DNA from: a virus
Length of the DNA stretch: 64,000 nucleotides
Reading direction: 5' to 3' (one strand)
Virus record (IMG/VR): IMGVR_UViG_3300045988_098461
Location: 20,546 to 84,545 of that record
The notes below the pieces were generated by a model. It worked only from the letters and a program-made list of their open reading frames with translations. It ran no database searches and was not told where the DNA came from. A program made the translations under genes and the position numbers. Below are positions 14,140 to 63,826 of this stretch, one piece after another; within the stretch, counting starts at the first letter, position 1; every line of letters starts with the position of its first letter.

Positions 14140-14826
14140 TTACTCCTTTGGAGCATTACGCTCCGAGAAGCCTTGCATTTTTGTAATGAAATCATTCTGC
14201 TCGTCTTCGGGAGAGGTTGCCTTGGGTGCTTCAACAAAATTGCCGTTTGCTACAAGTGACTGCTTCAATGCTGTCCAATCATCGGCACATTGCTGTGCGA
14301 GAGTTTCAAGATTCTCTTCCTTGTCGAGCTGATAACGTGAACGGAACTGCTGCGGAACGTCCTTCAATTTTTCGCTCTTACCGAAAAGGTCATCAAGACG
14401 TGCTCTTTCTTCCTTTTCCTTGTATGGGGCAATGGCGGCGGCTACAGCTTCGCTAACTGCTTTCTGGGTACTTTTGGTAGCCTCGGCAATCATCTGCTGA
14501 ACCTGCTCTTGCGTAAGCCCTGTTGGAGGTACTGGAGGGGTAGGAGGAACTGGTGGAGTAGGCTTATGGTTAGGGTCGTTAGGGTCAATCCATCCATCGA
14601 ATTTCTTCGTTGTTTCACTGACCGCACGATTGAATGATGATTGCATCATACCAACATAAGGTTCAACTGCCGAGATAGCACTCGTTACATCCTCGTCCTT
14701 TGACTCATCTGTTAGACCACGACTTGCAACAATCAGGTCAACCAGCTTTGAAAGTTCATCCTTCTTCAAACCATACTTTGCAAATGATGTTTTGGCAGAA
14801 GCAAGCACTTTTTCTTTTATTGTCAT
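14140..14826 (-). CDS. scaffolding protein (tentative)
   Basis: 228 aa, helical and acidic, with a PTPPVPPTPPVPP linker. It is the first gene of the head operon. Confidence 0.5.
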   Translation of the reverse strand: MTIKEKVLASAKTSFAKYGLKKDELSKLVDLIVASRGLTDESKDEDVTSAISAVEPYVGMMQSSFNRAVSETTKKFDGWIDPNDPNHKPTPPVPPTPPVPPTGLTQEQVQQMIAEATKSTQKAVSEAVAAAIAPYKEKEERARLDDLFGKSEKLKDVPQQFRSRYQLDKEENLETLAQQCADDWTALKQSLVANGNFVEAPKATSPEDEQNDFITKMQGFSERNAPKE

Positions 14827-14994: not shown

Positions 14995-15042
14995 AACAAA
15001 AATAAAAGGCAAGATAGCCAATATTCTTGGTTACTTTGCCTT
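14995..15042 (-). terminator. intrinsic terminator of the leader-protein/DUF559 cassette
   Basis: AAGGCAA(15006-12)/TTGCCTT(15036-42) stem, followed on the minus strand by TTATTTTTGTTT. Confidence 0.5.
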
Positions 15043-15387
15043 GCGTTGTATCAAATCTATCTTTGCCTTAACCTTCTTCGGATTCCTAGCATCGTGATTA
15101 CTCAATCTTACCACATGATACCCAAGCCGCCATATACCCGAAGAGCGGTTACCATCCTTGCGCTTTTGGTCTTTAGTAAAATGATAACCACCATCGAGCT
15201 CAATAATCGTTTTTATCTCGGGCAGATATATATCAGCGAAGTATAGCTTTCTGCCCGTGACTATCGGCTGCTGTGGTATCACCTTATATCCTAACAGAGT
15301 GCAGATTTTCGCCGCAGCCTTCTCCGCATCGGTTGTATGTGAAAGTAGGTCGCAGCGAATCTGATATATGAGTTTCTTGGATAGCAT
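15031..15387 (-). CDS. DUF559 / Vsr-like restriction-endonuclease-fold protein
   Basis: The stretch ...YFADIYLPEIKTIIELDGGYHF...VVRLSN... matches the DUF559 pattern. Confidence 0.65.
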   Translation of the reverse strand: MLSKKLIYQIRCDLLSHTTDAEKAAAKICTLLGYKVIPQQPIVTGRKLYFADIYLPEIKTIIELDGGYHFTKDQKRKDGNRSSGIWRLGYHVVRLSNHDARNPKKVKAKIDLIQRKAK

Positions 15388-15857
15388 TATTTATAATACT
15401 TTTTGAAATTTTCTTCGTTTGCGAAGTATTTTCCTGTAGTAGATGTTACTTCTTGCTTGAATTTTTTAACGCCATTAGCTAGTTTATTAAACTTATCTTT
15501 TGGCATAGCACTCTTAATAATAGATACGAATGCTTCGTGCGCTTTATCTGTTACATTCGGCTTTAATATGGCATTAAAAATGCTTCTATCATCGCTGAAA
15601 TTTATATTTCCAGAGATATTTTCTCCATGATTTATCGCACTCATAATTTTCGTTACATCGTACGTTGCATTTTTGAGGAGTTGATACAAATCTTGTTTAT
15701 CATATTCACTCAAATTGCTTATAGCACTATTTGGCGAGTTTGTCTTCAAGACTATATTTTCATTTGTCCCTCCCCCGATTGCGCTCTGCGCAAAGGTTCT
15801 GCTTGCGGCAGCATTTGCGCTGCTCACGGTTCTTGTACCGCCACTTGCCTTACTCAT
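15387..15857 (-). CDS. protein with conserved N-terminal MSKASGGTR leader (family member 2)
   Basis: N-terminus MSKASGGTRTVSSANAAASRT is nearly identical to that of 40752..41144. Confidence 0.55.
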   Translation of the reverse strand: MSKASGGTRTVSSANAAASRTFAQSAIGGGTNENIVLKTNSPNSAISNLSEYDKQDLYQLLKNATYDVTKIMSAINHGENISGNINFSDDRSIFNAILKPNVTDKAHEAFVSIIKSAMPKDKFNKLANGVKKFKQEVTSTTGKYFANEENFKKYYK

Positions 15858-36731: not shown

Positions 36732-36763
36732 TTTGGTTATCTGAATATTTCTTCGTAAATTTG
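36732..36763 (+). promoter_or_regulatory. Bacteroidota-type promoter TTTG-N20-TAAATTTG
   Basis: TTTG at 36732-35 and TAAATTTG at 36756-63. Confidence 0.6.
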
Positions 36764-36796
36764 CGAATAATTAACATTAAAATAGGAGATACAGCT

Positions 36797-37585
36797 ATGA
36801 TAGGAGCAATTATAGGTGATATTGTAGGCTCTAAATATGAGTTTAATAACACATTTGATTATAACTTTAAACTATTTGACGAAGGTTGTAATTTTACAGA
36901 TGATACTATCTGTACAATAGCCGTAGCAGATGCTATTCTTAAAGAAGGTGGTGATAAAAAGCCGAATGTCGGAGATTATTGTATCTCGCTTCAATACTGG
37001 TGTCAGAAGTATCTAAACCCAATGGGTGGGTATGGCGCAAGCTTCGCAAAATGGGTTCGTAGCTCTAATCCACAGCCTTATGATAGTTTTGGAAATGGAG
37101 CAGCTATGAGAGTTAGTCCTGTGGGTTGGGCATTCAAAGAAAATTCTGATATCATTCATCAGGCAATGATGAGCGCAAAGGTTTCGCATAGCCATGTTGA
37201 AGGATTGATTGGTGCTATTGCGGTAGCAGATTGTGTACATGCTTTAAAAGCATATAAACAAAAAGATTTGATTAGGGTAATAGCAAAACAATATTATGGC
37301 TCTGATTGGAATAAGAATCTTGTACCAAGAGGTAGATGGGCAGAAACTTGCCAAGAGTGCGTTCCTCTTGCCTTTAGAATAGTCCTTGATAGTGATAGCT
37401 TCGAGGACGCAATCAGAAATGCTGTATCCTACGGCGGTGATAGCGATACGATGGGAGCAATCGTTGGTTCAATCGCTCAGCCACTCTTTGGTATTCCACA
37501 AGAAATGAAGGAAAAAGCATTGAACTATCTCCCTTTGGATATGAAGAATGTAGTAACTAAATTTATTGATAGATATGGTGAATAA
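36797..37585 (+). CDS. ADP-ribosylglycohydrolase (DraG/Tri1-like ARH)
   Basis: Start at MIGAIIGDIVGSKYEF after TAGGAGATAC (36783-92). Also carries ...GAAMRVSPVGW... and ...SYGGDSDTMGAIVGSIA..., typical of the ARH family. Confidence 0.8.
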   Translation: MIGAIIGDIVGSKYEFNNTFDYNFKLFDEGCNFTDDTICTIAVADAILKEGGDKKPNVGDYCISLQYWCQKYLNPMGGYGASFAKWVRSSNPQPYDSFGNGAAMRVSPVGWAFKENSDIIHQAMMSAKVSHSHVEGLIGAIAVADCVHALKAYKQKDLIRVIAKQYYGSDWNKNLVPRGRWAETCQECVPLAFRIVLDSDSFEDAIRNAVSYGGDSDTMGAIVGSIAQPLFGIPQEMKEKALNYLPLDMKNVVTKFIDRYGE

Positions 37586-37910
37586 GGAAGATTTAATCAA
37601 GCACTGCCGATACTATAGAGGTGGTGAGAACCCAAATACCAACGAAAATATGGCTTGGTTTTGGGATATGGAAAGAGTGTATGTTAATAGCGAAGGAAAG
37701 TTTAAAGGTGAGGAAGAATATTATAAGAAAATCAATGGTAAGGAATATAAGGGGATTCCACATACATTGCTTATTATAATGTTCACTTCATGGGCTAAAG
37801 CAGCCTTCAATATTAAGGAAGAGATAGGTAGGTTCTATAAGCTGATAGACGAATACCTCTTTATCCCAAACGACCATTTCCCAGAGGATAAAATTCCAAA
37901 CGAACTATAA
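37575..37910 (+). CDS. hypothetical protein translationally coupled to the ARH
   Basis: Start MVNKEDL overlaps the end of the ARH gene. Confidence 0.45.
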   Translation: MVNKEDLIKHCRYYRGGENPNTNENMAWFWDMERVYVNSEGKFKGEEEYYKKINGKEYKGIPHTLLIIMFTSWAKAAFNIKEEIGRFYKLIDEYLFIPNDHFPEDKIPNEL

Positions 37911-41146: not shown

Positions 41147-42658
41147 TTATTCCTCCTCTTCTTCTTCATTGGAAACTGACTGTCTTCCACTTGCGGCACT
41201 ACCAAGTCCCGAAAGAGCTGCCTGCTGCGCCAACGCTTCTTCCTGTTCACTCTTCATTTCTTCCTCAACCTTATCAGGGTCATCATTGAGAGGGTTAAGC
41301 TCGATGGCACGGCGATTAGAGGTAGATTTCGCACCACCATTGGATGAAGTGATAAGTTGCAACATTTCAACATCATTCTTTGGTAGATATGGCTTGAAGA
41401 CTGGTTCAAAGTCAATCTGCTCAGCAACACTCTGGTCGATACCCTTTACGTAAACTCCCGTATTACAGATGCCGTTAGCTACGATATTCGAGCGGCGAGT
41501 AAACATTTCACCGAACATTTCTGTCTTCAAATCTGCTTTCATATAAGGAGCAGTGAACATCAAACGGATAGCCGCACCCGAGGTGTTGCTGCCCAAGGTT
41601 TTCATATTCTCAAAGCTGATATCGGCTGTTGAGGTGAATGAATAGATGATATTGAAGAGGTAAGCAATTTCACCCTTCACACTCTCAGGTGATTTATCCC
41701 ATGAAAGGACGTTCATACTTGCATCACTGCCACCTTGGAAGACTGTGCCTTGCTCGCCCTTCTCAGCGAAGCCCTCCAAACGACCTTTAATAAAGTACTT
41801 AGGCGTGCCGAAGTAGTCATTCGTATCACCCCAATTTGAGATACAAGTTTCCACTCTGTCAATAGCCCATTGAACATCTTCCCACTCAGCTTGGTCTTGT
41901 CTATAGTAAACGACAGGCACTTTGGTGAAGCCATGAGGTAGGGCAGAAATAAGCTTCCAACCTGCGCCATCAATATTAGTGTACTGATAGCACAATCTAT
42001 CTGTATATACATCAAAATGTAGCTCAGATTTTCCAAGCTCATCATATACATAGTACTCACGGGCGAAGCCGTCCATGATATGGAAATCGTTGAAATGAGG
42101 GTAGAGCTTATCGCCGTTTGAAGGTGAAAGCAACTGAACTCGGATTTCGCCTCGAAGCTTTCCCTCTGCGTCTGTTGGCATATACCATAACTCGGCGCAC
42201 TCACATTCCTTGAAGAGGGTACGGGCAAGTCGCTTATCGAAGTACTTCATCTTGTTGTCGTGATAGCAGTGCATGATGCCGTCATATAGCTTCTGCTGCT
42301 TATCGTCCATCTTCTTTATATCAACACCATGTGCCGTAGCTTTATAGGTAACGGCATTCATAAACAAGAAACCAACAGTAAGATTTGTGATTGACTTCTG
42401 AGCAGGGATAGCGATTCTTACTGGCTCAACTTTCTTATCCTTATAAATCGGTTTCTGTGTGATAGGGTCATACTGACCCGTAGGTACTTTGATTCGTTTC
42501 TTAGGACGGAAATCCTCATCAAAGATTTTATGCTTTGATGGATTCCATTGTTCTTCAAGCACACTCAGTGATGTCTTAAAGCCTTTCTTTCTTGCGGTCA
42601 ATACCGAGCGGACTGTGTTCGCATCTTGTATTGATACTATCTGTTCTATTGCTCTCAT
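41147..42658 (-). CDS. portal protein
   Basis: 503 aa between TerL and MuF, with an acidic C-terminal tail (NEEEEEE). Confidence 0.8.
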   Translation of the reverse strand: MRAIEQIVSIQDANTVRSVLTARKKGFKTSLSVLEEQWNPSKHKIFDEDFRPKKRIKVPTGQYDPITQKPIYKDKKVEPVRIAIPAQKSITNLTVGFLFMNAVTYKATAHGVDIKKMDDKQQKLYDGIMHCYHDNKMKYFDKRLARTLFKECECAELWYMPTDAEGKLRGEIRVQLLSPSNGDKLYPHFNDFHIMDGFAREYYVYDELGKSELHFDVYTDRLCYQYTNIDGAGWKLISALPHGFTKVPVVYYRQDQAEWEDVQWAIDRVETCISNWGDTNDYFGTPKYFIKGRLEGFAEKGEQGTVFQGGSDASMNVLSWDKSPESVKGEIAYLFNIIYSFTSTADISFENMKTLGSNTSGAAIRLMFTAPYMKADLKTEMFGEMFTRRSNIVANGICNTGVYVKGIDQSVAEQIDFEPVFKPYLPKNDVEMLQLITSSNGGAKSTSNRRAIELNPLNDDPDKVEEEMKSEQEEALAQQAALSGLGSAASGRQSVSNEEEEEE

Positions 42659-42965: not shown

Positions 42966-44156
42966 TTAACCCATCAGACCGAGAATGTCGGCGGCTTGCA
43001 TTCCGCTGCCATAATCGCCCAATAACTTCTCCATAACAACATATCGGCATGCATCTATAGCGTGATTATACATATCTATAGGCTCATTAAGCCACTTTCC
43101 TTCCTTATCTTGGCGATAGGTATAATTATTAAATTCCCTTCTTACATTTGTAGAGCGTTTTGTTATATGAATTGTGTATTCTTGCATCTTCATAATACTA
43201 GCTTGAATAGAACCTTTGAACTTCTTTACAGGTTTTATATCAATACCAGCATTATAGATTTCATCTATCAGACGAGGGTCGGCACTCTCTGATATTACCT
43301 CAATATTTTTTTTATCCTCTTTCAATACTCTGATAATATCAGAAGAAAGCATTTCTGTCTGATAGCATATTTCATCTATATAGATAATCTTTCCGTAGAT
43401 ATATACATCAATAATCGCTGTAGGGTCATTGGAGTAACCAAAGTCAATGGCTCTGTATCGGTGTCTGTTCGCTTGAATAGGAATATAATCATCAATAACT
43501 ACATTCTTAAAAATCAAGCCCTCAACCATAGAACGCAATCCCAAACCATAAATACGCCAAAGGCTCGGATTCTTCCATTTAAGGCTCTCAATCTCAGCGA
43601 TAACCTTTGGCTCGAGGAAAGGATTATCCTTATAGGTGGATATAAACCAATAAGTGCTTTTTTCCTCGTTTACCTGATTTATCCAATGGTCTTCTGAGAA
43701 GGAAGGGTTATAATCAAGGATAGAGAACTCCGTGGTACGCATCTGTAGCTGCTGCCATTCGATGAAAGAAAGCTCATTCGCCTCATTTACGAAAAGTATC
43801 TTACGCTTAGAACCACGCACCTTCTGCTCGTTATCGGTGGAGAAGAACTCAATCCAAGAGCCGTTAGGGAAAGTATAAACGAACTCCGATTTATTCATGC
43901 ACTTATCATCCCACCAACCAAAGTTGAGCATTATATCCTTGAAATCACGATAGACAGTTCGTTTAATGGAAGGCATACCAGCACGAATGATGGAAACGGT
44001 CGTTCCAGCATAATTGAAGCAAAGCATACAGAGGAACTGCACAACAGAATAGGTCTTCGCAGAGCGTGAGCTTCCTTGAAGAGAGCAAGTTGTGAACCCT
44101 GCTTCTTTCGCTGCCTTTACCCTCATGTAGTTCTTTGCTAAATATACGTGCGGCAT
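42966..44156 (-). CDS. terL: terminase large subunit
   Basis: 396 aa with a Walker-A-like GSSRSAKT and a C-terminal nuclease-like half. Sits directly upstream of the portal. Confidence 0.9.
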   Translation of the reverse strand: MPHVYLAKNYMRVKAAKEAGFTTCSLQGSSRSAKTYSVVQFLCMLCFNYAGTTVSIIRAGMPSIKRTVYRDFKDIMLNFGWWDDKCMNKSEFVYTFPNGSWIEFFSTDNEQKVRGSKRKILFVNEANELSFIEWQQLQMRTTEFSILDYNPSFSEDHWINQVNEEKSTYWFISTYKDNPFLEPKVIAEIESLKWKNPSLWRIYGLGLRSMVEGLIFKNVVIDDYIPIQANRHRYRAIDFGYSNDPTAIIDVYIYGKIIYIDEICYQTEMLSSDIIRVLKEDKKNIEVISESADPRLIDEIYNAGIDIKPVKKFKGSIQASIMKMQEYTIHITKRSTNVRREFNNYTYRQDKEGKWLNEPIDMYNHAIDACRYVVMEKLLGDYGSGMQAADILGLMG

Positions 44157-44179: not shown

Positions 44180-44689
44180 TTATTTCTTTATTTCATCAAC
44201 TGTAACTAAGGTGTCGTTGTGCGAGCCGCCATGTGCTACGATAAGAATCTCTTTACATACCGCTCCGTTACATTTTCCTATTCCTTGTGTATTCCAACCA
44301 CAAGAAATACAGATACCTTCATTCTTTAATATTCTTGCAATCTCCTTCTTACATAAAGACCAATATTTGGCATTAGAGACATTTATCTCCAATTTCTCTT
44401 TGCCAAAATCCTTATATAGCAAAGATGCTTGTGTTACACTATAAGGTGGGTCGTATAATACCATATCAGCAGAATTAGATTTCTGCCCTTGAAGGAACTT
44501 TAATGCGTCAAGGTGATACTGAGTATCGCAGTTCGGATTTAAGTCATTGCGAATTGTTCCGAGCTTGCAATCCTTTGCGAATGGGTCAATAATAACACCA
44601 CCTTTATTATATTTATCAAAAAGTTCTTTGATTGGCTTTATACCGAAAGTATCACCACTTGGCATAGCCCATTTCTTCTGTATTTCCAT
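44180..44689 (-). CDS. small DNA methyltransferase (DPPY motif)
   Basis: VIIDPFA (motif I-like) and VLYDPPYS (motif IV). Confidence 0.65.
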   Translation of the reverse strand: MEIQKKWAMPSGDTFGIKPIKELFDKYNKGGVIIDPFAKDCKLGTIRNDLNPNCDTQYHLDALKFLQGQKSNSADMVLYDPPYSVTQASLLYKDFGKEKLEINVSNAKYWSLCKKEIARILKNEGICISCGWNTQGIGKCNGAVCKEILIVAHGGSHNDTLVTVDEIKK

Positions 44690-44693
44690 ATAT

Positions 44694-45197
44694 TTATTCT
44701 CCTATATTTTTATCTGGCTCAGCATCCTTCTTTTCTTTCTCTTTCTGAATCTCAGCGAGAATCTTCTGATACTCTTCATTGTTGGTAACAACGTGTACTT
44801 GCAATGGGTCTTGCTTAATCTGCTCGCCCTTGCTCGTAAGGTCGATGCGTTGAATCTTTCCGTAGGCTCTATCAATAACTCTTTCGAGCACATCAAGCCC
44901 TTTCTTGTCAAGTATTCCCTTGGCAATAATGCGTTGCATCATCGGGCGTGACTTATCTGTCAACACCGCCTCCAATTCGGCTTGGGGCAGGGTCGCGATA
45001 TACAGAAAAGACTCCGCGATAATCTGAGAGGAAGGCACTTCGTAACCCTTCTCCTTCATTTCTTCGATGAACAATGACATCGTCTTAGGCTTTGGCGGTC
45101 TACCCTTCGGGTTGCCAACTCCACCTTTTTTAAACTTACCTTTTTCAAGGTTTGCAAGCTGTCTTTTACGCTTGCTTTCATCTCTTGATAATGGCAT
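44694..45197 (-). CDS. terS: terminase small subunit (tentative)
   Basis: 167 aa with a basic N-terminus (KRKRQLANLEKGKFKKGGVGNPKGRPPK), upstream of TerL. Confidence 0.55.
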   Translation of the reverse strand: MPLSRDESKRKRQLANLEKGKFKKGGVGNPKGRPPKPKTMSLFIEEMKEKGYEVPSSQIIAESFLYIATLPQAELEAVLTDKSRPMMQRIIAKGILDKKGLDVLERVIDRAYGKIQRIDLTSKGEQIKQDPLQVHVVTNNEEYQKILAEIQKEKEKKDAEPDKNIGE

Positions 45198-45238: not shown

Positions 45239-45538
45239 TTATTTAAGAAAAGCATCTTTATTCTCTTTTTCCTCTGCTGCCATTTCTCGGCACATTTTTA
45301 GTACATTAAAGTACTCTCCAAGATTGTTGTTATAGAGCAGCTTTGCTATCTGCTGTACAAAAGATGACTTACGTCCATCTTGTTGTAAGGTCACTATCTG
45401 GCTCGCTGGCATCATCAAGAACTGCTCCATGATTTCAACCTTTTCCTTAGAGGAAAGAAGCTTCTTGGTAGGAAGCAGAAAACCCACTTCCTCCAAGATT
45501 TTTGTTTTGACTGATTTAACCTTCATACTTATCACCAT
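45239..45538 (-). CDS. hypothetical protein
   Basis: 99-aa ORF. Start is uncertain because it overlaps the end of folE. Confidence 0.4.
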   Translation of the reverse strand: MVISMKVKSVKTKILEEVGFLLPTKKLLSSKEKVEIMEQFLMMPASQIVTLQQDGRKSSFVQQIAKLLYNNNLGEYFNVLKMCREMAAEEKENKDAFLK

Positions 45539-46118
45539 TTACGAGGTTCATAAACTCAGCTCTCACTTGTGGGTTATCTTTGAAAGCACCTTCAAGGTAA
45601 GAAGAGGTCATAATACCCTTCTTCTTTGCGCCTCTGAACTCTTTGCAAGAATGATGACCCTTCATCACGAGAGCAATACCAAGTGGTGGGTATTCGCTAC
45701 CGAGAGCATTTTTCAGCATATCTACGATGTCGTGTACCAATCGCTCCTGTATCTGTAAGCGAGCGGAGCAGTAATCAACTACACGACCAATCTTAGAGAT
45801 ACCGAGAATCTTTCCCTTTGGGTTCGGAATATATGCGAACCAATACTTACCCCAAAACCAAACACAATGATGCTCGCAGTTTGAATGGAAATCTCCTTGG
45901 TCGATAACCATGTTATCATAGACGATACCGTCATCATTGTTATCAAAGGTGGTAATCTTCGGCTTCTGTGAAGGGTCATAACCTCTGAATATTTCTTTCC
46001 ACATTCTAATAATGCGGTCGGGCGTTCCCTCTAAGCCCTTGCGGTTAGGGTCTTCACCGATATACTCCAAGAGCTCTTTGATATGCTTTTCTGCTTTTTC
46101 TTTTGTAATCTTAGCCAT
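45516..46118 (-). CDS. folE: GTP cyclohydrolase I
   Basis: Start moved to MAKITKE. Carries ...HSNCEHHCVWFWGKYWFAYIPN..ILGISKIGRVVDYCSARLQIQERL.... Confidence 0.85.
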   Translation of the reverse strand: MAKITKEKAEKHIKELLEYIGEDPNRKGLEGTPDRIIRMWKEIFRGYDPSQKPKITTFDNNDDGIVYDNMVIDQGDFHSNCEHHCVWFWGKYWFAYIPNPKGKILGISKIGRVVDYCSARLQIQERLVHDIVDMLKNALGSEYPPLGIALVMKGHHSCKEFRGAKKKGIMTSSYLEGAFKDNPQVRAEFMNLVNGDKYEG

Positions 46119-46122
46119 ATTA

Positions 46123-46335
46123 TTAACCTTTCCAATATTCTTTATAATCTTGTTTCTCCTCCTCATTAGGCTCATATACCTCATAAGAAGTACCGCATTG
46201 CATACAATGATAGTAATCCACTACGGAATCATCATCCTCGCTGCGGTCACCTGATGAATCCCAACAAAGTTTCCCACCGCAATAAAAGCAGATAGGACGA
46301 TACTTTGTCGGGGTTTTCTTTTTATTCTTGCTCAT
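46123..46335 (-). CDS. small zinc-ribbon protein
   Basis: CFYCGG...CMQCG. Confidence 0.5.
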   Translation of the reverse strand: MSKNKKKTPTKYRPICFYCGGKLCWDSSGDRSEDDDSVVDYYHCMQCGTSYEVYEPNEEEKQDYKEYWKG

Positions 46336-46347
46336 AGGCGAAATGAT

Positions 46348-46938
46348 TTATTTCACGTTGAGAATCTTCTGCTGCTGTAAAGAAAGTCGCCACTTAGGGT
46401 TAGCCTCTACGAAAGCAACAGTCTGTTTCAGAATCTCGGCATTCTTCTTTGCATCGCCCGTATCACAAGGTTGAACGTAGTAGTAATCTGCATCAATACC
46501 ACAATCGGTAATCTCGTGCTCACCATCAAAGACAACCTTCACCTCAGTAGCTATCTTTATGATAGGTTCTGCGCCCTTAACGAATAAGCACTTAGGAGAG
46601 CAAGTAACCCAGTTGATACCACCATGAATCTTGTGCGTTCCGTTGGTCTCCATAGCAATATAATAGCCCCAATTTTGGAGAAGGGTAGTAAGCTCCTCAT
46701 CCACCTGTAATGTAGGCTCACCGCCCGTAAAGACAACAAATTTACAATCAGGTGAGAGCAACTGAATCTTATTCAGAATATCAATAGCCCCCATTTCCTC
46801 ATACTTCTTAAAGTCAGTATCACAGAAAGGGCACTTCAAGTTACAACCCGAGAAGCGGACGAAGATAGCCGCTCTGCCTGCATGTCTTCCCTCACCTTGG
46901 ATAGAGTAGAAGATTTCGTTTACTTTATACTTAGCCAT
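46348..46938 (-). CDS. queE: 7-carboxy-7-deazaguanine synthase (radical SAM)
   Basis: YSIQGEGRHAGRAAIFVRFSGCNLKCPFCDTDF. Confidence 0.85.
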   Translation of the reverse strand: MAKYKVNEIFYSIQGEGRHAGRAAIFVRFSGCNLKCPFCDTDFKKYEEMGAIDILNKIQLLSPDCKFVVFTGGEPTLQVDEELTTLLQNWGYYIAMETNGTHKIHGGINWVTCSPKCLFVKGAEPIIKIATEVKVVFDGEHEITDCGIDADYYYVQPCDTGDAKKNAEILKQTVAFVEANPKWRLSLQQQKILNVK

Positions 46939-47297
46939 TAGAGAGCCTCCTTTCCGTCAATTTTATCATCGTCACAATAAACAGCGATATTGCCTTCACT
47001 CTCCTGTACCTGTGCCTTGTAGCACTCTATGAACTGAGCAACAATCCATTTGGCGATATTCTCAGCAGTAGGATTGAAAAACAAAAGCTCGTTGAGGTTG
47101 CCGTGGTCGAGGTAGCCGTGAATCTTCTGCTTAATATGCTTGAAGTCCATCACCATACCATCCTTGTTCAGCTTTTCAGCCTTGCAGTAGACAGTAATAA
47201 TCCAATTATGCCCATGAAGGTTGGCGCACTTGCTTTCATAAGAGAGATTCAGCTTATGACAAGCGGCAATCTCCATTCTTTTTGAAACGTAATACAT
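46938..47297 (-). CDS. queD: 6-carboxy-5,6,7,8-tetrahydropterin synthase
   Basis: ...ACHKL......LHGHNW.... Confidence 0.85.
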   Translation of the reverse strand: MYYVSKRMEIAACHKLNLSYESKCANLHGHNWIITVYCKAEKLNKDGMVMDFKHIKQKIHGYLDHGNLNELLFFNPTAENIAKWIVAQFIECYKAQVQESEGNIAVYCDDDKIDGKEAL

Positions 47298-47315
47298 AAT
47301 TTTCCTTTCTTTTAT

Positions 47316-47346
47316 TTTGTTATTTCAATTTTTATTCTTAATTTTG
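47316..47346 (+). promoter_or_regulatory. orphan Bacteroidota-type promoter TTTG-N19-TAATTTTG, antisense to the que operon
   Basis: TTTG at 47316-19 and TAATTTTG at 47339-46. Confidence 0.55.
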
Positions 47347-47352
47347 CGACCG

Positions 47353-47446
47353 AGAAGAATAAATCGGGTGGGTCAGTACACTGGCTGCTCGATTTCATGC
47401 TTATTCTTCAAAGGCAAAGAGGTGTACCTGCTTTGCTGTTTTTTAT
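47353..47446 (+). ncRNA. candidate ~95-nt structured sRNA with an intrinsic terminator
   Basis: A 9-bp stem GAAGAATAA(47354-62)/TTATTCTTC(47401-09) encloses inner helices. The terminator is GCAAAG-AGGT..ACCT-CTTTGC(47414-36) plus TGTTTTTTAT. No ORF. Confidence 0.45.
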
Positions 47447-47985
47447 CAAAGTTTATGGCGATGAACATTGCCTGATAAGCCAACAACAATAACTTCTTTT
47501 AAGTTACCTCTTTCATTTCCTTTTGCATGAGTGAGATACATAGAAATTTGGTCTTTGACATATTCCTTTGTCATAGCCTTGTTATTCTGTATGAGGATAG
47601 CAACCTCTGCCCCTTGCTTTGCAGCACTCTTCAATGCATTCTCTACCTTATAGGCACTCGCCGAGTTGATGGTTTTCATATCCATCACGGCGTGCTCTTT
47701 GAAGCCATCAGTCTTCTTCGCTCCCGTTATATACGACATTTCGCTCATCAAATATACACGATAACCCTTTTTGGCAAGAACTTCTGCGGCATACATTTCC
47801 TTATTGGTATTCGGGTCAGCAATCTTATTATGGTTGTTATGTACCACATAATAACCGCCGCTTTTATCGAAGTAGCTATCTTTATAGTTGCCCGTAGAGA
47901 CGATGGCTTGAAATTCTGATTCTCTCTTAGCCATCGTCTTAGGGTTACCCGAATAGTTTCGTGTACCTCCGCTTGCCTTACTCAT
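47446..47985 (-). CDS. protein with N-terminal MSKASGGTR leader (family member 3) and a possible PD-(D/E)xK-like C-terminal domain
   Basis: Start moved to the internal MSKASGGTRNY (47985), because the longer track ORF overlaps queC. ...KKTDGFKEHAVMDMKTI...QGAEVAILIQ... resembles restriction-endonuclease-fold toxin domains, but this is tentative. Confidence 0.5.
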   Translation of the reverse strand: MSKASGGTRNYSGNPKTMAKRESEFQAIVSTGNYKDSYFDKSGGYYVVHNNHNKIADPNTNKEMYAAEVLAKKGYRVYLMSEMSYITGAKKTDGFKEHAVMDMKTINSASAYKVENALKSAAKQGAEVAILIQNNKAMTKEYVKDQISMYLTHAKGNERGNLKEVIVVGLSGNVHRHKL

Positions 47986-48634
47986 CCTCGTATTCGGTTG
48001 GGTCTGAAATGCCTGCATCACGGAGAGCTTCCTTGCGTTCCATACAAGTACCACACTTACCGCAATGCTTCTCACCGCCCTTGTAGCAGCTCCAAGTTTC
48101 AGCGTAGTTAATGCCAAGCTCCTTGCCGTGGCGAGCAACATCAGTCTTCGTAATACTGGTATAAGGAGCATCAATGCTGATACCCTCGTAAGTACCATTC
48201 TTCATTGCCTCTGACATGGCATCAATGAAGCCCTTGCGGCAGTCTGGATAGATTGCGTGGTCGCCGAAATGGTTAGCAATAAGCACCTTCTTCAATCCAT
48301 TACTCTCTGCGATACCGCAAGCGATAGAGAGCATAATGCCGTTACGGAAAGGAACTACGGTTGATTTCATGTTTGCATCATCGTAATTACCTTCTGGGAT
48401 AGCTTCTGCTCCTTCGAGGAGAGAGGATTTGAAATAATCGTGAATAAAATTGAGTGGAATAACAATATGCTTGATACCAAGTCGCTCACAATGCAACTTA
48501 GCAAAAGGAATCTCCTTCTGATTGTGGTTAGAGCCATAATCAAAAGAAATAGCGAGAGCAATGTTCTCTTTCTTCTCATGCAGGAGAGTTACCGAGTCCA
48601 TACCTCCTGATACAATAATCAATGAATCTTTCAT
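47978..48634 (-). CDS. queC: 7-cyano-7-deazaguanine (preQ0) synthase
   Basis: IIVSGGMDS PP-loop and a C-terminal Cys cluster CYKGGEKHCGKCGTC. Confidence 0.9.
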   Translation of the reverse strand: MKDSLIIVSGGMDSVTLLHEKKENIALAISFDYGSNHNQKEIPFAKLHCERLGIKHIVIPLNFIHDYFKSSLLEGAEAIPEGNYDDANMKSTVVPFRNGIMLSIACGIAESNGLKKVLIANHFGDHAIYPDCRKGFIDAMSEAMKNGTYEGISIDAPYTSITKTDVARHGKELGINYAETWSCYKGGEKHCGKCGTCMERKEALRDAGISDPTEYEDE

Positions 48635-48662
48635 AACTAATTAAAATTTAAATATTTATCTT

Positions 48663-49523
48663 TTATAATCTTGCACGAGCGTACTTCATAAAGCGTACCC
48701 ACTCGCCGAAATTATGTGCAGCAACCAACTTTGAGCGAAGTTTCTTGCCCTCAGGTGCTTTGGTTTTATCCATAGTTCCGTTCTTGGCATTGAACTTATA
48801 TATAGAACCGCTCATATTGCCATAAAGCCAAGCTGTTGAATCCACAGAATCAAAGTGATAAGTATGCAATCCTCTGATATTTGTATATCCAAGAGCATGT
48901 ATCTTGCAGCCATATTTATGTGCTGTCTTTATGAACCAAGGAAATAACTTCTCATATTTATTGATAGGTATCTCTTTAGTCACGATGCCACCAATAGCCA
49001 CATAAGGGTAATTCTTGCACATTTCAACGAAATACTCTTTCCCTCGTGACTTATGCCAAACGGGGATAGGCTTACGTCCACTTAATCTTTCGAGCTTTTC
49101 ACGAAGTCTTTCAACCTCCTTGATACCAACAACTGAATCAATATCAAGCTCAAAGAAATTCTTTACGTTCCATTTCTTAATGAATGCAGCATATCCTTCT
49201 ACGTATTTATCGAAGTTAACTACACCTGCTCCCGACATAAATGTGAAAGCACCACTATCTAATAGGAAATTCTGAAAATTGCCTATCAATCGAGGAAACT
49301 CTTTATTATTCTGTAGATAATAGTAAGTTTCCAATATATTTAATCCTTCCCAATCGGCATCCTTGCCGTTCTTTACTGGGTGTTCACCTGCTAAAAAAAC
49401 TTCCATAGCCTTTTTATAAACATAGGGACGACTTAAAGTCCCTGCTATATATAATTCCATACTAACACTTTTCCAAAACTTACTAAGATTTCCAGTAAGC
49501 CCCCCCGCAAGATAGACTTCCAT
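48663..49523 (-). CDS. dpdA: DpdA-like DNA (tRNA-guanine-transglycosylase-fold) transglycosylase
   Basis: ...FLLDSGAFTFMSG... core and its position beside queC. Start is ambiguous because of three ME[VL][YF][LI]AG repeats. Confidence 0.6.
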   Translation of the reverse strand: MEVYLAGGLTGNLSKFWKSVSMELYIAGTLSRPYVYKKAMEVFLAGEHPVKNGKDADWEGLNILETYYYLQNNKEFPRLIGNFQNFLLDSGAFTFMSGAGVVNFDKYVEGYAAFIKKWNVKNFFELDIDSVVGIKEVERLREKLERLSGRKPIPVWHKSRGKEYFVEMCKNYPYVAIGGIVTKEIPINKYEKLFPWFIKTAHKYGCKIHALGYTNIRGLHTYHFDSVDSTAWLYGNMSGSIYKFNAKNGTMDKTKAPEGKKLRSKLVAAHNFGEWVRFMKYARARL

Positions 49524-49530
49524 ATCTCTA

Positions 49531-50202
49531 TTATTTTATTTCCACACCATCGTATTCGGAAACGGCAGACTTGATAATCTCCTTAATCTCATCTACCTTA
49601 TCTTCCAACTCTTGTGGAATATGGACGGAGAGCTTAATATCTTTAACTTTGCTCTCGGTATTTTGGGCATCCTCGAATAGCTCATCAATATCGGTATCAT
49701 CCTCATCGGTATTGAGAAAAGAGCAATCAACACCCCAATTCTGCAAATCATCGGTTTCCCATTCACCATTGGCAAGCTCATCCCAATCCCAATTACCTGC
49801 TTGCACGTTATCCTTGATAGCATACTCCTTGATTTTCTGAATTGGGGTATCGGTCTTCAAGACGAAACAAGGCAGCTTATCGAAGTTCGTATTTCCACCG
49901 ATGCGTAACTCGTTAGCCACTCTGAGGCGCATATTACCGCAGATGGTGACGTATGTACCATCCTCCAAGCCATAAACCATCAAAGGCTTGTACTCTAAGA
50001 GCTCTGGGCTATCGGCGAGTGATTTGACGAGCTTGTCGTGCTCGCTCTCCTTTAAGTAGCGAGGGTTCTTTGGAACGCCATCAATCTGCCCCTCATTATA
50101 GAGGAGCTTTGTAATGTCAATCATTTCACGAAACCCAAGCTTTACAAGAAGCTCATCCTTTGCGATGGATGGGTTCTGTGAGATTCTCTTTTCTCTTGCC
50201 AT
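49531..50202 (-). CDS. ParB N-terminal-domain (ParB-like nuclease/NTPase) protein, DpdB-like by context
   Basis: ...GVPKNPRYLKESEHDKLVKSL... and ...ICGNMRLRVANEL.... Confidence 0.65.
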   Translation of the reverse strand: MAREKRISQNPSIAKDELLVKLGFREMIDITKLLYNEGQIDGVPKNPRYLKESEHDKLVKSLADSPELLEYKPLMVYGLEDGTYVTICGNMRLRVANELRIGGNTNFDKLPCFVLKTDTPIQKIKEYAIKDNVQAGNWDWDELANGEWETDDLQNWGVDCSFLNTDEDDTDIDELFEDAQNTESKVKDIKLSVHIPQELEDKVDEIKEIIKSAVSEYDGVEIK

Positions 50203-50551: not shown

Positions 50552-51322
50552 TTACTTTTCCTCAATCTGTTTAGAGACATTATCTGTTCGGAAATCCTCA
50601 ATCTGCTTGGAGAAAGGGGTGAGCTTATCAAGCTGCGCCTTAACAGAGAACTCTTCTCCGATAAAGGCAACACCTTCGTGAATCTTCTGCAAGGCGGCAA
50701 GCTGCTTCTTTGTAGTAACAACGGGGTTGATGTAGATGCAACCTCTATGGGTCTGGGCGAACCGCAGACACTCAGCACCGCCGCCGTAGATAACAAATAG
50801 CGGCTCTTTGCCCTCTGCCCAATCGCTTGCAATGGAATACTCAAAGGCGAGGTTATTCAGTCTATCCGAATATCCACGGGTAGCGAAGGCACGCCATCCA
50901 CGAGGTACGCCAATCATATTGAGGCGATAGAACTTCTGCGCAACGTTGAGGTCAACGAAGATACCGATACCCTTACCTTGCATACAACGGGCAATCCAGC
51001 GTTTCTTGTAGATAGCCTGCAAGCCGAAAGATACGGGCATTTCATTATATAGGGAGAAGTTCGGCTCAACGATAACGGCAGGGTGATGCTGCAATATCTT
51101 CTCAGGGTGCTCGTAGATAGCTGAGAAGCGGTAATCATCGGTATAGAAGTGCAAAGAGCCTTCACCATTGAGGTTGAAGGTTCTCTTCTGTTCGCCGAAG
51201 CAAAGGAAGGGTGACTGACACTCCTTTGCTTGCATATCAATATCGAGTGTCGGAATCTCTAGGTCATTGTCCGTTGGGAAGAGCTGGTCGGGCAGGGTAA
51301 GCTCATAATCTGTTCTTTTCAT
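50552..51322 (-). CDS. DUF4417-family protein
   Basis: ...SLHFYTDDYRFSAIYEHPEKIL....IVEPNFSLYNEMP...IYKKRWIARCMQ.KGI... matches the DUF4417 pattern. Confidence 0.6.
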   Translation of the reverse strand: MKRTDYELTLPDQLFPTDNDLEIPTLDIDMQAKECQSPFLCFGEQKRTFNLNGEGSLHFYTDDYRFSAIYEHPEKILQHHPAVIVEPNFSLYNEMPVSFGLQAIYKKRWIARCMQGKGIGIFVDLNVAQKFYRLNMIGVPRGWRAFATRGYSDRLNNLAFEYSIASDWAEGKEPLFVIYGGGAECLRFAQTHRGCIYINPVVTTKKQLAALQKIHEGVAFIGEEFSVKAQLDKLTPFSKQIEDFRTDNVSKQIEEK

Positions 51323-62628: not shown

Positions 62629-62662
62629 AAGAAAGGGTAGGGCGAAAGCTCTACCCCTTCTT
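62629..62662. terminator. hairpin between convergent genes (overlaps the integrase stop)
   Basis: AAGAAAGGGTAG-GGCGAAAGCT-CTACCCCTTCTT. Confidence 0.5.
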
Positions 62663-63826
62663 GTTATATAGAACATAATCAATAACCTTTCGATTGGCTT
62701 CATCAATCCGTTGTTGGTCTTTTCGCACATATATAGAGGTTATTCTATGGCTATTCTTATGCCCAAGGCAGTCTGCAATAATATCCATACTGATACCAAT
62801 CTCATAAGCAATAGTAGCAAAGGTATGTCTTGCCCAATAAGTAGTTACTTCGGGTATTCCTATACTTTTGCAGATTTTGCTAAGACATCTATTATTGGCT
62901 TGGTCAAAGCTTAGATACGATGCTTTTCTATCGAATTGCTTGATAAGATGCTCTTTCCCTCTATATCGTTCAATAATCTCCATAGCCTCAGGTTCTACCT
63001 TTATATTATATAGCGTTCCCGTTTTTGAGCGGCGATAGGAGATTCTGCCGTTTTCTATTTTTTCTAATTTCGATAGGTCTTTAACATTGATACCCATTAG
63101 ATAGAAGATAAGAAAGAACATATCACGATGTTTAGAACGGATAGGTGATAACTTTGCTTCATGCAATTTTCTTAACTGCTCAACAGTTAATGAGCGTTTC
63201 CTTGTTTCTTCTGATTTAATACTATACATATTAAAAACATATTCTTTAAGGACACCTTTTTTGCGAGCATAGTTTAAGATGGTTCGGATAATCCTTAATC
63301 TCATAGCAATGGTGTTTTTGCAATTTTTTATCTTTAGAAAATCAACGAAATCATCCAACCAGTCTATATCTATATCTTCAACCCTTAATGTATCATAATC
63401 ACAGAAATCTTTTATTCTGTTTTCTGCTGCGATATATATGCGTTTAGTTCCCTCACTTTCTTTCTTGGATAGAAATTCTGCCATCTGTGTTTTGAAAAGA
63501 TGATTCTCGTAATCGGTTTTATCTTCTTCGTTAGACAGATAAAGTGATAGCTTCTTATTAGAGAAGTAGCGCAGTTTGCCTTCTTCTTGCAATTGCACTA
63601 TCTTATCATTAAGAAGGGAAATCCTTTTCATAAGCTTCATATTGATAACTCTCTGTTCGGGTATTCCTTTCACCTTCTCATTCTTAGCATCCCATTCATC
63701 TTCTTTCAGCTCATAGCCTGTGGGAATATAAATGGCACTATCTTTCCTTGCCACTTTGAACTTCAAAGGGAATCTGCCGCTATTCAATCGCCTCCTTTTA
63801 TCCAACTTAATTGAAATCTTAATCAT
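62651..63826 (-). CDS. int: tyrosine recombinase / phage integrase
   Basis: 391 aa with ...YWARHTFAT... and ...LGHKNSHRITSIYV.... Has an N-terminal arm-binding-like domain of the Bacteroidota integrase type and AAGGAGATAC upstream. Confidence 0.9.
   Translation of the reverse strand: MIKISIKLDKRRRLNSGRFPLKFKVARKDSAIYIPTGYELKEDEWDAKNEKVKGIPEQRVINMKLMKRISLLNDKIVQLQEEGKLRYFSNKKLSLYLSNEEDKTDYENHLFKTQMAEFLSKKESEGTKRIYIAAENRIKDFCDYDTLRVEDIDIDWLDDFVDFLKIKNCKNTIAMRLRIIRTILNYARKKGVLKEYVFNMYSIKSEETRKRSLTVEQLRKLHEAKLSPIRSKHRDMFFLIFYLMGINVKDLSKLEKIENGRISYRRSKTGTLYNIKVEPEAMEIIERYRGKEHLIKQFDRKASYLSFDQANNRCLSKICKSIGIPEVTTYWARHTFATIAYEIGISMDIIADCLGHKNSHRITSIYVRKDQQRIDEANRKVIDYVLYNKKG

Follow-up and report, generated by a model that had tools for sequence, protein, structure and literature searches.

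In the 64,000-nt stretch of viral DNA analyzed here (the window), a gene encoding a 179-aa protein with an N-terminal leader is embedded among genes for a 7-deazaguanine DNA modification. The original prediction read this protein as a packaged nuclease directed at host or competitor DNA that lacks the modification, with the phage's own modified genome being spared. This raises the question of what kind of protein the gene encodes, and whether its place among the modification genes reflects a shared function.

Position and surroundings of the gene

The ORF map agrees with the predicted arrangement, in which the gene begins 8 nt within queC and precedes queD: its ATG (47983-47985) lies in the 8-nt overlap with the queC ORF, and a gap of 148 nt separates its end from queD. 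A longer, 250-aa version would carry an additional 71 aa that overlap queC in a different frame. As had been expected, this start is unlikely and the 179-aa start is the correct one, because nearly all full-length homologues measure 177-203 aa and start with M-A/S-K, and because other lineages have an in-frame stop 4-25 codons upstream of the ATG that matches the 179-aa start. The 148-nt gap ahead of queD showed no significant RNA structure (z-score 0.16) and contained none of the terminator-like sites, of which 14 were found, compared with 6.0 in shuffles. A promoter scan gave no excess of sites (19, versus 20.6 in shuffled sequence). Scans of the window for Rfam families at gathering thresholds and for tRNAs gave no match, and no preQ1 riboswitch reached the cut-off. 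Megablast of the region against cultured phages likewise gave no match, and NCBIfam had no name for the 179-aa protein.

The gene is part of a run of minus-strand genes, from DUF4417 and ParB through TerS, TerL and portal to MuF, that constitutes the packaging/head module of the phage (Table 1). The phage is probably temperate, since it carries an integrase. The 169-aa ORF between the two terminase genes is unannotated, and calling it a methylase would be a guess. A 70-aa cysteine-rich ORF (CxxC...CxxC; "Zn70") between QueE and FolE overlaps the annotated start of FolE, and is kept in many, though not all, relatives. Two related loci encode a large terminase of 528 aa (L001, 9836-11422; L002, 6400-7986), compared with 396 aa in the window; weak matches to PT-HINT and intein-splicing domains suggest that an intein is contained in these proteins.

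Table 1. Features of the window discussed in the text, with their positions.
Feature	Position	Strand	Evidence or remarks
Leader-tagged, CdiA-CT(Bp1026b)-like nuclease gene	47446..47985	minus	ORF, 179 aa, N-terminus MSKASGG
N-terminal leader, residues 1-13 (MSKASGGTRNYSG)	47947..47985	minus	K3, G6, G7, R9 and N10 invariant
Nuclease domain, residues about 15-179	47449..47943	minus	Profile positions about 15-170 match C-termini of MuF proteins
Catalytic-type motif E82 ... D93-G94 ... D102-x-K104	47674..47742	minus	Invariant or nearly invariant columns
Second leader-tagged gene, 130 aa	40752..41144	minus	MAKGSGNTR...; between portal and MuF
Third leader-tagged gene, 156 aa	15387..15857	minus	MSKASGGTR...; upstream of scaffold and capsid genes, scaffold candidate at 14140-14826
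118-aa DUF559/Vsr-like PD-(D/E)xK endonuclease gene	15031-15387	minus	Starts on the last base of the third leader-tagged gene
preQ0/DpdA cluster around the nuclease gene	45516..49523	minus	Pfam and PHROG matches
DUF4417 protein	50552-51322	minus	Pfam/PHROG
ParB-like protein	49531-50202	minus	Pfam/PHROG
DpdA	48663-49523	minus	phrog_887, E 3e-54
QueC	47978-48634	minus	PF06508, E 6e-57
QueD	46938-47297	minus	PTPS, E 8e-28
QueE	46348-46938	minus	Pfam/PHROG
Cysteine-rich ORF, 70 aa	46123-46335	minus	Between QueE and FolE
FolE	45516-46184	minus	Pfam/PHROG
p99, 99-aa gene	between FolE and TerS-like	minus	
TerS-like	44694-45197	minus	
169-aa ORF	44180-44689	minus	Unannotated
TerL	42966-44156	minus	396 aa
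Portal	41147-42658	minus	L001 homologues carry PF05133 SPP1_portal
MuF minor-head protein fused to ADP-ribosyltransferase (Bxa-like), 934 aa	37948..40752	minus	phrog_16625, E 2.5e-123; PF03496, E 1e-24; Phage_Mu_F match weak
ADP-ribosylhydrolase-like gene (DraG/Tri1-type) and overlapping 114-aa ORF	36761-37910	plus	Convergent to the MuF-ADP-ribosyltransferase gene
Tyrosine recombinase/integrase	62651-63826	minus	

The DUF4417 protein, which adjoins the ParB-fold protein or is fused with it in other phages, is reminiscent in this respect of the DpdA/DpdB pair (PMC10164549), and it occurs even in relatives without que genes. Nearly all of the top PDB fold matches of its AlphaFold2 model (pLDDT 84) were tRNA-guanine transglycosylases, albeit weakly (E about 0.04, probability about 0.9), so the model leaves room for the view that DUF4417 could be a second base-exchange enzyme. 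The hhalign comparison with the phage DpdA alignment was negative (probability 0.2). As a second transglycosylase or a partner of the leader, DUF4417 is thus an unconfirmed candidate.

A toxin-type nuclease domain shared with phage head proteins

The 179-aa protein has 59 close homologues, mostly of about the same length, and a profile search of 1.84 billion representative proteins yielded 412 relatives at E<=0.001. The sole consistent Pfam match of the family was PF18451 (CdiA_C), the tRNase domain of CdiA-CT(II) from Burkholderia pseudomallei 1026b, which belongs to the PD-(D/E)xK clan (PMC9990079). This domain was matched by 27 of 30 homologues at E<=0.01 (best E 1.3e-7); the window protein itself scored 18.9 bits, under the gathering threshold of 26.6, whereas two remote relatives exceeded it, P0086 with 32.6 bits and P0135 with 27.7 bits. 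From the family alignment we built an AlphaFold2 model (mean pLDDT 82), whose first-ranked and only significant Foldseek match in the PDB was the CdiA-CT toxin of B. pseudomallei 1026b (4g6v_A; E 8.8e-5, probability 1.0, TM 0.44/0.57 over 127 columns), with the next match at E 0.036. Since the family sequence profiles retrieved only designed proteins among PDB chains and missed 4g6v, the link to CdiA-CT rests on Pfam and Foldseek. Taken together, these sequence and model comparisons make the fold assignment secure and place the protein in the CdiA-CT(Bp1026b)/PF18451/cd13442 branch of PD-(D/E)xK nucleases, and the tentative assignment to a PD-(D/E)xK toxin or nuclease domain in the original prediction is borne out.

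The D...D-x-K arrangement that had led to this assignment is present in the sequence and conserved. In an alignment of 30 homologues with 44-80% identity, D93-G94 and D102-M-K104 were invariant, bar one conservative change at D102, and residue 82 was conserved as either E or D. Invariant or nearly invariant positions fell into three groups: K3, G6, G7, T8, R9, N10 and Y11 at the N-terminus; G43, G44, H49 and H52; and E82, D93, G94, D102, K104, Q124, Q133 and H175. At the sequence level, conservation of the motif is well above chance expectation. The resulting pattern, E82...D93...D102-x-K104, fits the active site E...D...(D/S)-x-K of the CdiA-CT toxins TA271 and Bp1026b (PMC9086364), a correspondence by pattern only. 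As the acidic-acidic-DxK center is intact, the protein is probably catalytically active. Of the two characterized toxins, TA271 is a Zn-dependent DNase, while Bp1026b cleaves the acceptor stem of tRNA-Ala (PMC9086364). By analogy with Bp1026b, the closest relative and a tRNase, RNA, most likely tRNA, would be the more probable substrate.

Many of the relatives found in the large profile search were longer proteins of 300-513 aa, in which the nuclease domain (profile positions about 15-170) is located at the C-terminus. Eight of ten long relatives tested contained an N-terminal Phage_Mu_F domain, which is absent from the 179-aa protein itself according to Pfam. The best matches among predicted viral structures (BFVD) point in the same direction: they included a 453-aa "CDI toxin-like protein", a mycobacteriophage capsid-protease/MuF fusion, a "tRNA nuclease CdiA C-terminal domain" protein, three "minor capsid proteins" of 520-560 aa, and an 883-aa portal protein, also a fusion. 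The single match in a cultured phage, Elizabethkingia phage TCUEAP3, has the domain at the C-terminus of an annotated minor head protein, encoded beside the portal gene. MuF toxins with a cd13442 (Bp1026b-type) domain have been described before (PMC5576092), and MuF toxins of Bacteroidales, Bxa among them, are an active research topic (PMC11699363). The MuF fusions do not carry the MAKxSGGTR peptide of the small proteins, and their homology to these begins at about residue 15; judging from these sequences, one toxin domain therefore seems to be combined with either of two N-terminal modules, the leader or the MuF domain. Because its relatives are fused to MuF head proteins, the earlier idea that the 179-aa protein is a packaged effector is plausible, with packaging inferred from these fusions.

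A leader tag on small proteins of the packaging operon

The leader is not confined to the nuclease. Three minus-strand ORFs of the window (starts at 47985, 41144 and 15857) have the motif M[AS]K.SG[GN]TR at their N-terminus. No Pfam or PHROG match was found for the 130-aa protein encoded by the second of these. In the AlphaFold2 model of the nuclease, the leader is predicted to be disordered, with residues 1-7 at pLDDT below 50. Across 75 loci around nuclease homologues, of which 10 kb on either side was visible, we counted 136 tagged ORFs with about 20 unrelated clusters of cargo. A scan of IMG/VR with a degenerate DNA pattern for MAKx[ST]GGTR returned at least 100 stretches; among the 101 peptide matches listed, nearly all begin an ORF of 19-216 aa, and 2-3 looked like chance matches within longer frames. 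Pooling the 75 loci with the IMG/VR matches listed, at least 32 unrelated cargo clusters bear the tag, and in each of them a polar linker (about 10-20 residues, enriched in S, T, N, K and P) comes after the motif, although part of the apparent invariance of the tag was imposed by the search patterns. The leader of the original prediction is confirmed, and it occurs widely. A literature search found no description of the tag, and a free-text search for the tag sequence was uninformative.

The carriers of the tag are Bacteroidales phages related to the window phage. Two of the cargos are ADP-ribosyltransferases (L091, PF01129, E 1.3e-11; L105, PF03496, E 1.9e-15), while most of the others had no Pfam or PHROG match. 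All 61 tagged genes other than those for the nuclease are on the strand of the late operon: 32 were located in the interval from portal to MuF, 17 in that from DUF4417 to ParB, and 8 in that from DUF4417 to TerL.

Some further features of these genes were observed. The first 30 nt of two of the tagged genes in the window (47956-47985 and 15828-15857, minus strand) are identical at 26 of 30 positions, after which homology stops abruptly. This pattern suggests that the tag may also be a recombination junction for the swapping of cargos. The tag, in a form such as MAKGGGSTRTV... (L050, 5827-6204), is similar to the conserved start of ribosomal protein L27 of bacteria (AHKKAGGSTRNGRDS in Escherichia coli); this resemblance may be a coincidence of composition. 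A homologue of the DUF559/Vsr-like endonuclease encoded next to the third tagged gene was also seen in L071, and L104 has one close to a tagged gene.

The reading that we prefer, and to which we give about an even chance, is that the gene encodes a standalone, leader-tagged cargo effector, a nuclease of the MuF/CDI toxin type. From the family and fold of the domain, its conserved motif, the distribution of the tag and the synteny observed here, we infer the activity, substrate, packaging and injection of the 179-aa nuclease as follows. Residues of about 15-179 would form the effector, a PD-(D/E)xK nuclease domain, and residues 1-13 the disordered tag (M-S/A-K-x-S-G-G-T-R), placed on polymorphic small proteins of the packaging/head operon. 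As a trafficking signal, the tag would bring these proteins into the procapsid, from which they would enter the next host cell with the DNA, making them non-covalent "cargo" counterparts of the MuF-fused toxins. The nuclease, delivered in this way or made late in the producing cell, would damage host RNA, in support of takeover or of antagonism towards competitors. The presence of a MuF-ADP-ribosyltransferase toxin in the same phage supports the cargo reading. We are more tentative, at somewhat below an even chance, about the wider proposal that M-A-K-x-S-G-G-T-R is a portable capsid-loading signal, and marks an undescribed "cargo effector" arm of the phage MuF toxin system in abundant gut phages of Bacteroidales, through which dozens of unrelated small effectors (the nuclease, ADP-ribosyltransferases and many proteins of unknown type) would be loaded with neither a MuF fusion nor T4-style protease processing, and injected with the DNA.

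Several findings speak against the cargo reading. No small immunity-like ORF next to the nuclease gene is conserved in any lineage, unlike what is seen for MuF and CDI toxins. The 99-aa gene p99, at first an immunity candidate, was dismissed because the L071 and L075 lineages lack it. By comparison, the MuF-ADP-ribosyltransferase gene of the window is followed, convergently, by the ADP-ribosylhydrolase-like gene and its overlapping 114-aa ORF, a layout that matches the immunity pair BAH/Bsi of Bxa (PMC11699363). The absence of an immunity gene weakens the toxin reading somewhat, but it also fits a protein made only in lytic growth. The PF18451 score below the gathering threshold and the failure of the family profile to retrieve 4g6v also count against it, as does the survival of an intact copy of the gene in a degraded chromosomal remnant (see below). 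Finally, no structural protein of these phages is as well conserved as the tag, and this could mean that its partner is in the host rather than in the capsid.

Some of these points would be accounted for if the protein were never packaged, and instead acted inside the cell in the late phase, in the decay of host RNA or in nucleic-acid processing that serves the ParB/DUF4417/terminase module. The tag would then have another role, for example in regulation, in stability, or in contacts with some common partner of phage or host origin. Its conservation beyond that of portal and MuF (in L071, identity is 63% for TerL, 50% for portal and 44% for MuF) would agree with this, and a missing immunity gene suits a protein whose production is limited to cells already bound for lysis. 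Furthermore, many tagged genes directly adjoin DUF4417, and the nuclease family always occurs near ParB, DUF4417 and TerS/TerL, although gene order varies. Against it, fusions of the same domain with MuF and with portal proteins recur, the interval from portal to MuF contains half of the other tagged genes, and among the tagged cargos are ADP-ribosyltransferases, which are classically packaged in phage heads (PMC5512222). We consider an unpackaged nuclease rather unlikely.

The 7-deazaguanine genes and comparison with known systems

Whether the nuclease is coupled to the 7-deazaguanine genes can be judged from its lineages. Clustering of the family at 70% identity divided the 75 loci into ten lineages, and a locus was taken to contain que or DpdA genes if FolE, QueC, QueD, QueE or DpdA was matched by phmmer at E<1e-3 within 10 kb. 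By this measure, 27 of the 75 loci, corresponding to six of the ten lineages, had none; one of these six (L004) carries a gene for a TAGT-family (TAGT-type) transglycosylase. In the lineage of the window (44 loci), the nuclease gene is always found between the positions of QueC and QueD, and keeps this place in the 8 loci where a YhhQ/Vut_1 preQ0 transporter replaces QueC. In these relatives (L019, L020, L025, L027, L028, L040, L041 and L047), DpdA and QueC together have given way (at about 8.1-10.0 kb in L019) to genes for a 109-aa protein, a 305-aa protein without Pfam matches, and the YhhQ/Vut_1 transporter, of a preQ0 uptake family, while QueD, QueE and FolE are kept.

In other lineages, the arrangement is different. 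The L050 group (19 loci) has the order ParB-N6_N4-methylase, SAM-synthetase-like gene, nuclease, p99, TerS; in L050 (7873-9987), as in the rest of the group, the que slot holds genes for a fusion of ParB with an N6_N4 DNA methylase and for a 262-aa protein in which, of SAM synthetase, just the N-terminal domain is present. In the L071 group, the nuclease gene lies between a gene for an ABC-ATPase/GNAT protein, preceded by ParB, and DUF4417. L075 contains an unbroken DpdA-QueC-QueD-QueE-FolE run, with the nuclease gene two genes upstream, outside the cluster. In L103, the tagged nuclease gene is situated between portal and MuF, away from DpdA, and in L093 it comes just after MuF. The gene downstream of the nuclease accordingly varies by lineage (queD, p99, DUF4417, ParB or TerL). 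What remains constant are ParB and DUF4417, which adjoin the homologue in nearly all 75 loci regardless of que content, and the terminase genes. With these as the constant neighbors, the que genes are one of several cargos of the slot, and look like cargo inserted around a gene of the ParB/DUF4417-to-terminase module. We propose that the gene came to lie between queC and queD because of a variable insertion slot, extending from ParB/DUF4417 to terminase, and not because of functional coupling. This region is a swap site for DNA-modification cargo, which can be the que cluster, the YhhQ transporter, or the ParB-methylase with the SAM-synthetase-like gene.

Within the 10 kb covered on either side, the lineage survey thus argues against an obligate pairing of modification and nuclease, with the reservations that L004 carries its TAGT-family gene and that DUF4417 itself may be a base-exchange enzyme. 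A DNase that cuts unmodified host or competitor DNA, with the phage DNA protected by a preQ0-type 7-deazaguanine, would explain why the gene of the window lies within the que cluster on the same strand, overlaps queC by 8 nt, and holds its place when the transporter replaces QueC; the PD-(D/E)xK group of CdiA-CT domains does include Zn-dependent DNases such as TA271. Yet most lineages lack que and DpdA genes nearby, L075 has the nuclease gene outside the cluster and L103 has it between portal and MuF, and the nearest relative in both sequence and fold is the tRNase Bp1026b, not TA271 (PMC9990079, PMC9086364). In addition, for the phage DpdA enzymes known to date, the exchange is confined to short motifs and to part of the G (about 16.5% in phage iggy; PMC10484667), and such partial replacement would protect poorly against a non-specific DNase. 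The self/non-self pairing of the original prediction, an attractive but unsupported coupling, is corrected here as very unlikely; the protein is more likely to be a deliverable effector than a partner of the surrounding DNA-modification genes.

A decayed remnant of such a locus was observed on bacterial contigs of uncultured Bacteroidales (L005, L006 and L175), flanked in the chromosome by a two-component system and by an MFS transporter/nusA. Fragments of ParB, DpdA, QueD and QueE remain there with a FolE homologue, whereas the 179-aa nuclease is still intact (63% identity, with its motif), and the identical protein is present on 16 contigs. Least probable of all is a toxin expressed from the prophage, for abortive infection, superinfection exclusion or as half of a toxin-antitoxin pair: the temperate phage and the intact copy on these 16 contigs would suit it, but the gene sits in the late operon on the strand of terminase and portal, with no partner ORF, no evident promoter of its own and no conserved antitoxin candidate.

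Should the tag indeed be a loading signal, phages of Bacteroidales that are common in the human gut would inject a large and mostly uncharacterized set of proteins, as only the nuclease and ADP-ribosyltransferase families among the at least 32 tagged families have a recognizable domain. It would also provide a very short peptide for the packaging of foreign proteins into these phages.

Among known systems, the domain itself is most similar to CdiA-CT(II) of B. pseudomallei 1026b (PDB 4G6V), the best PDB fold match, with which it shares the PD-(D/E)xK core and the acidic...D...D-x-K pattern with the same 9-residue spacing from D to D. It differs in being phage-encoded, in its low identity (about 16%), and in an extra conserved N-terminal subdomain (GG..H..H, residues 43-52). 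Unlike in a CDI system, the 179-aa product stands alone between QueC and QueD, with no CdiA delivery region, CdiB, or CdiI-like neighbor. The combination of a DpdA-type transglycosylase and preQ0 genes with a nuclease-fold gene and a ParB-like protein resembles the bacterial Dpd system (PMC10164549). In contrast to that system, the mapped cluster has no DpdD-K-like helicase or ATPase restriction components, and the nuclease family is also found without que/DpdA genes and has toxins, not restriction enzymes, as relatives.

The tag itself invites comparison with the capsid-targeting sequence (CTS) of the T4 internal proteins (PMC3012670). There, too, a tailed phage has small proteins of great diversity that begin with the same short, conserved peptide, and the procapsid loading and injection proposed here would follow the T4 logic. 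The phages studied here differ from T4 in their Bacteroidales hosts and in being siphovirus-like with an SPP1-type portal/MuF module, and no scaffolding core or prohead protease was identified for the window phage. Because no prohead protease was recognized among the head-region ORFs tested, the T4 mechanism is not literally transferable. The tag is not known to share sequence similarity with the CTS.

The MuF polymorphic toxins of temperate phages (PMC5576092), including Bxa (PMC11699363), can have the toxin domain of the nuclease as their C-terminal module, and share with the tagged proteins a location in the packaging module and polymorphic cargo. Unlike these toxins, the nuclease has no MuF domain and no small immunity ORF downstream, and a tag of 9-13 residues takes the place of a trafficking domain of roughly 300 aa. 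The type of nuclease domain was already known; its tagged standalone architecture, and the polymorphic tag family to which it belongs, appear to be an undescribed variant.
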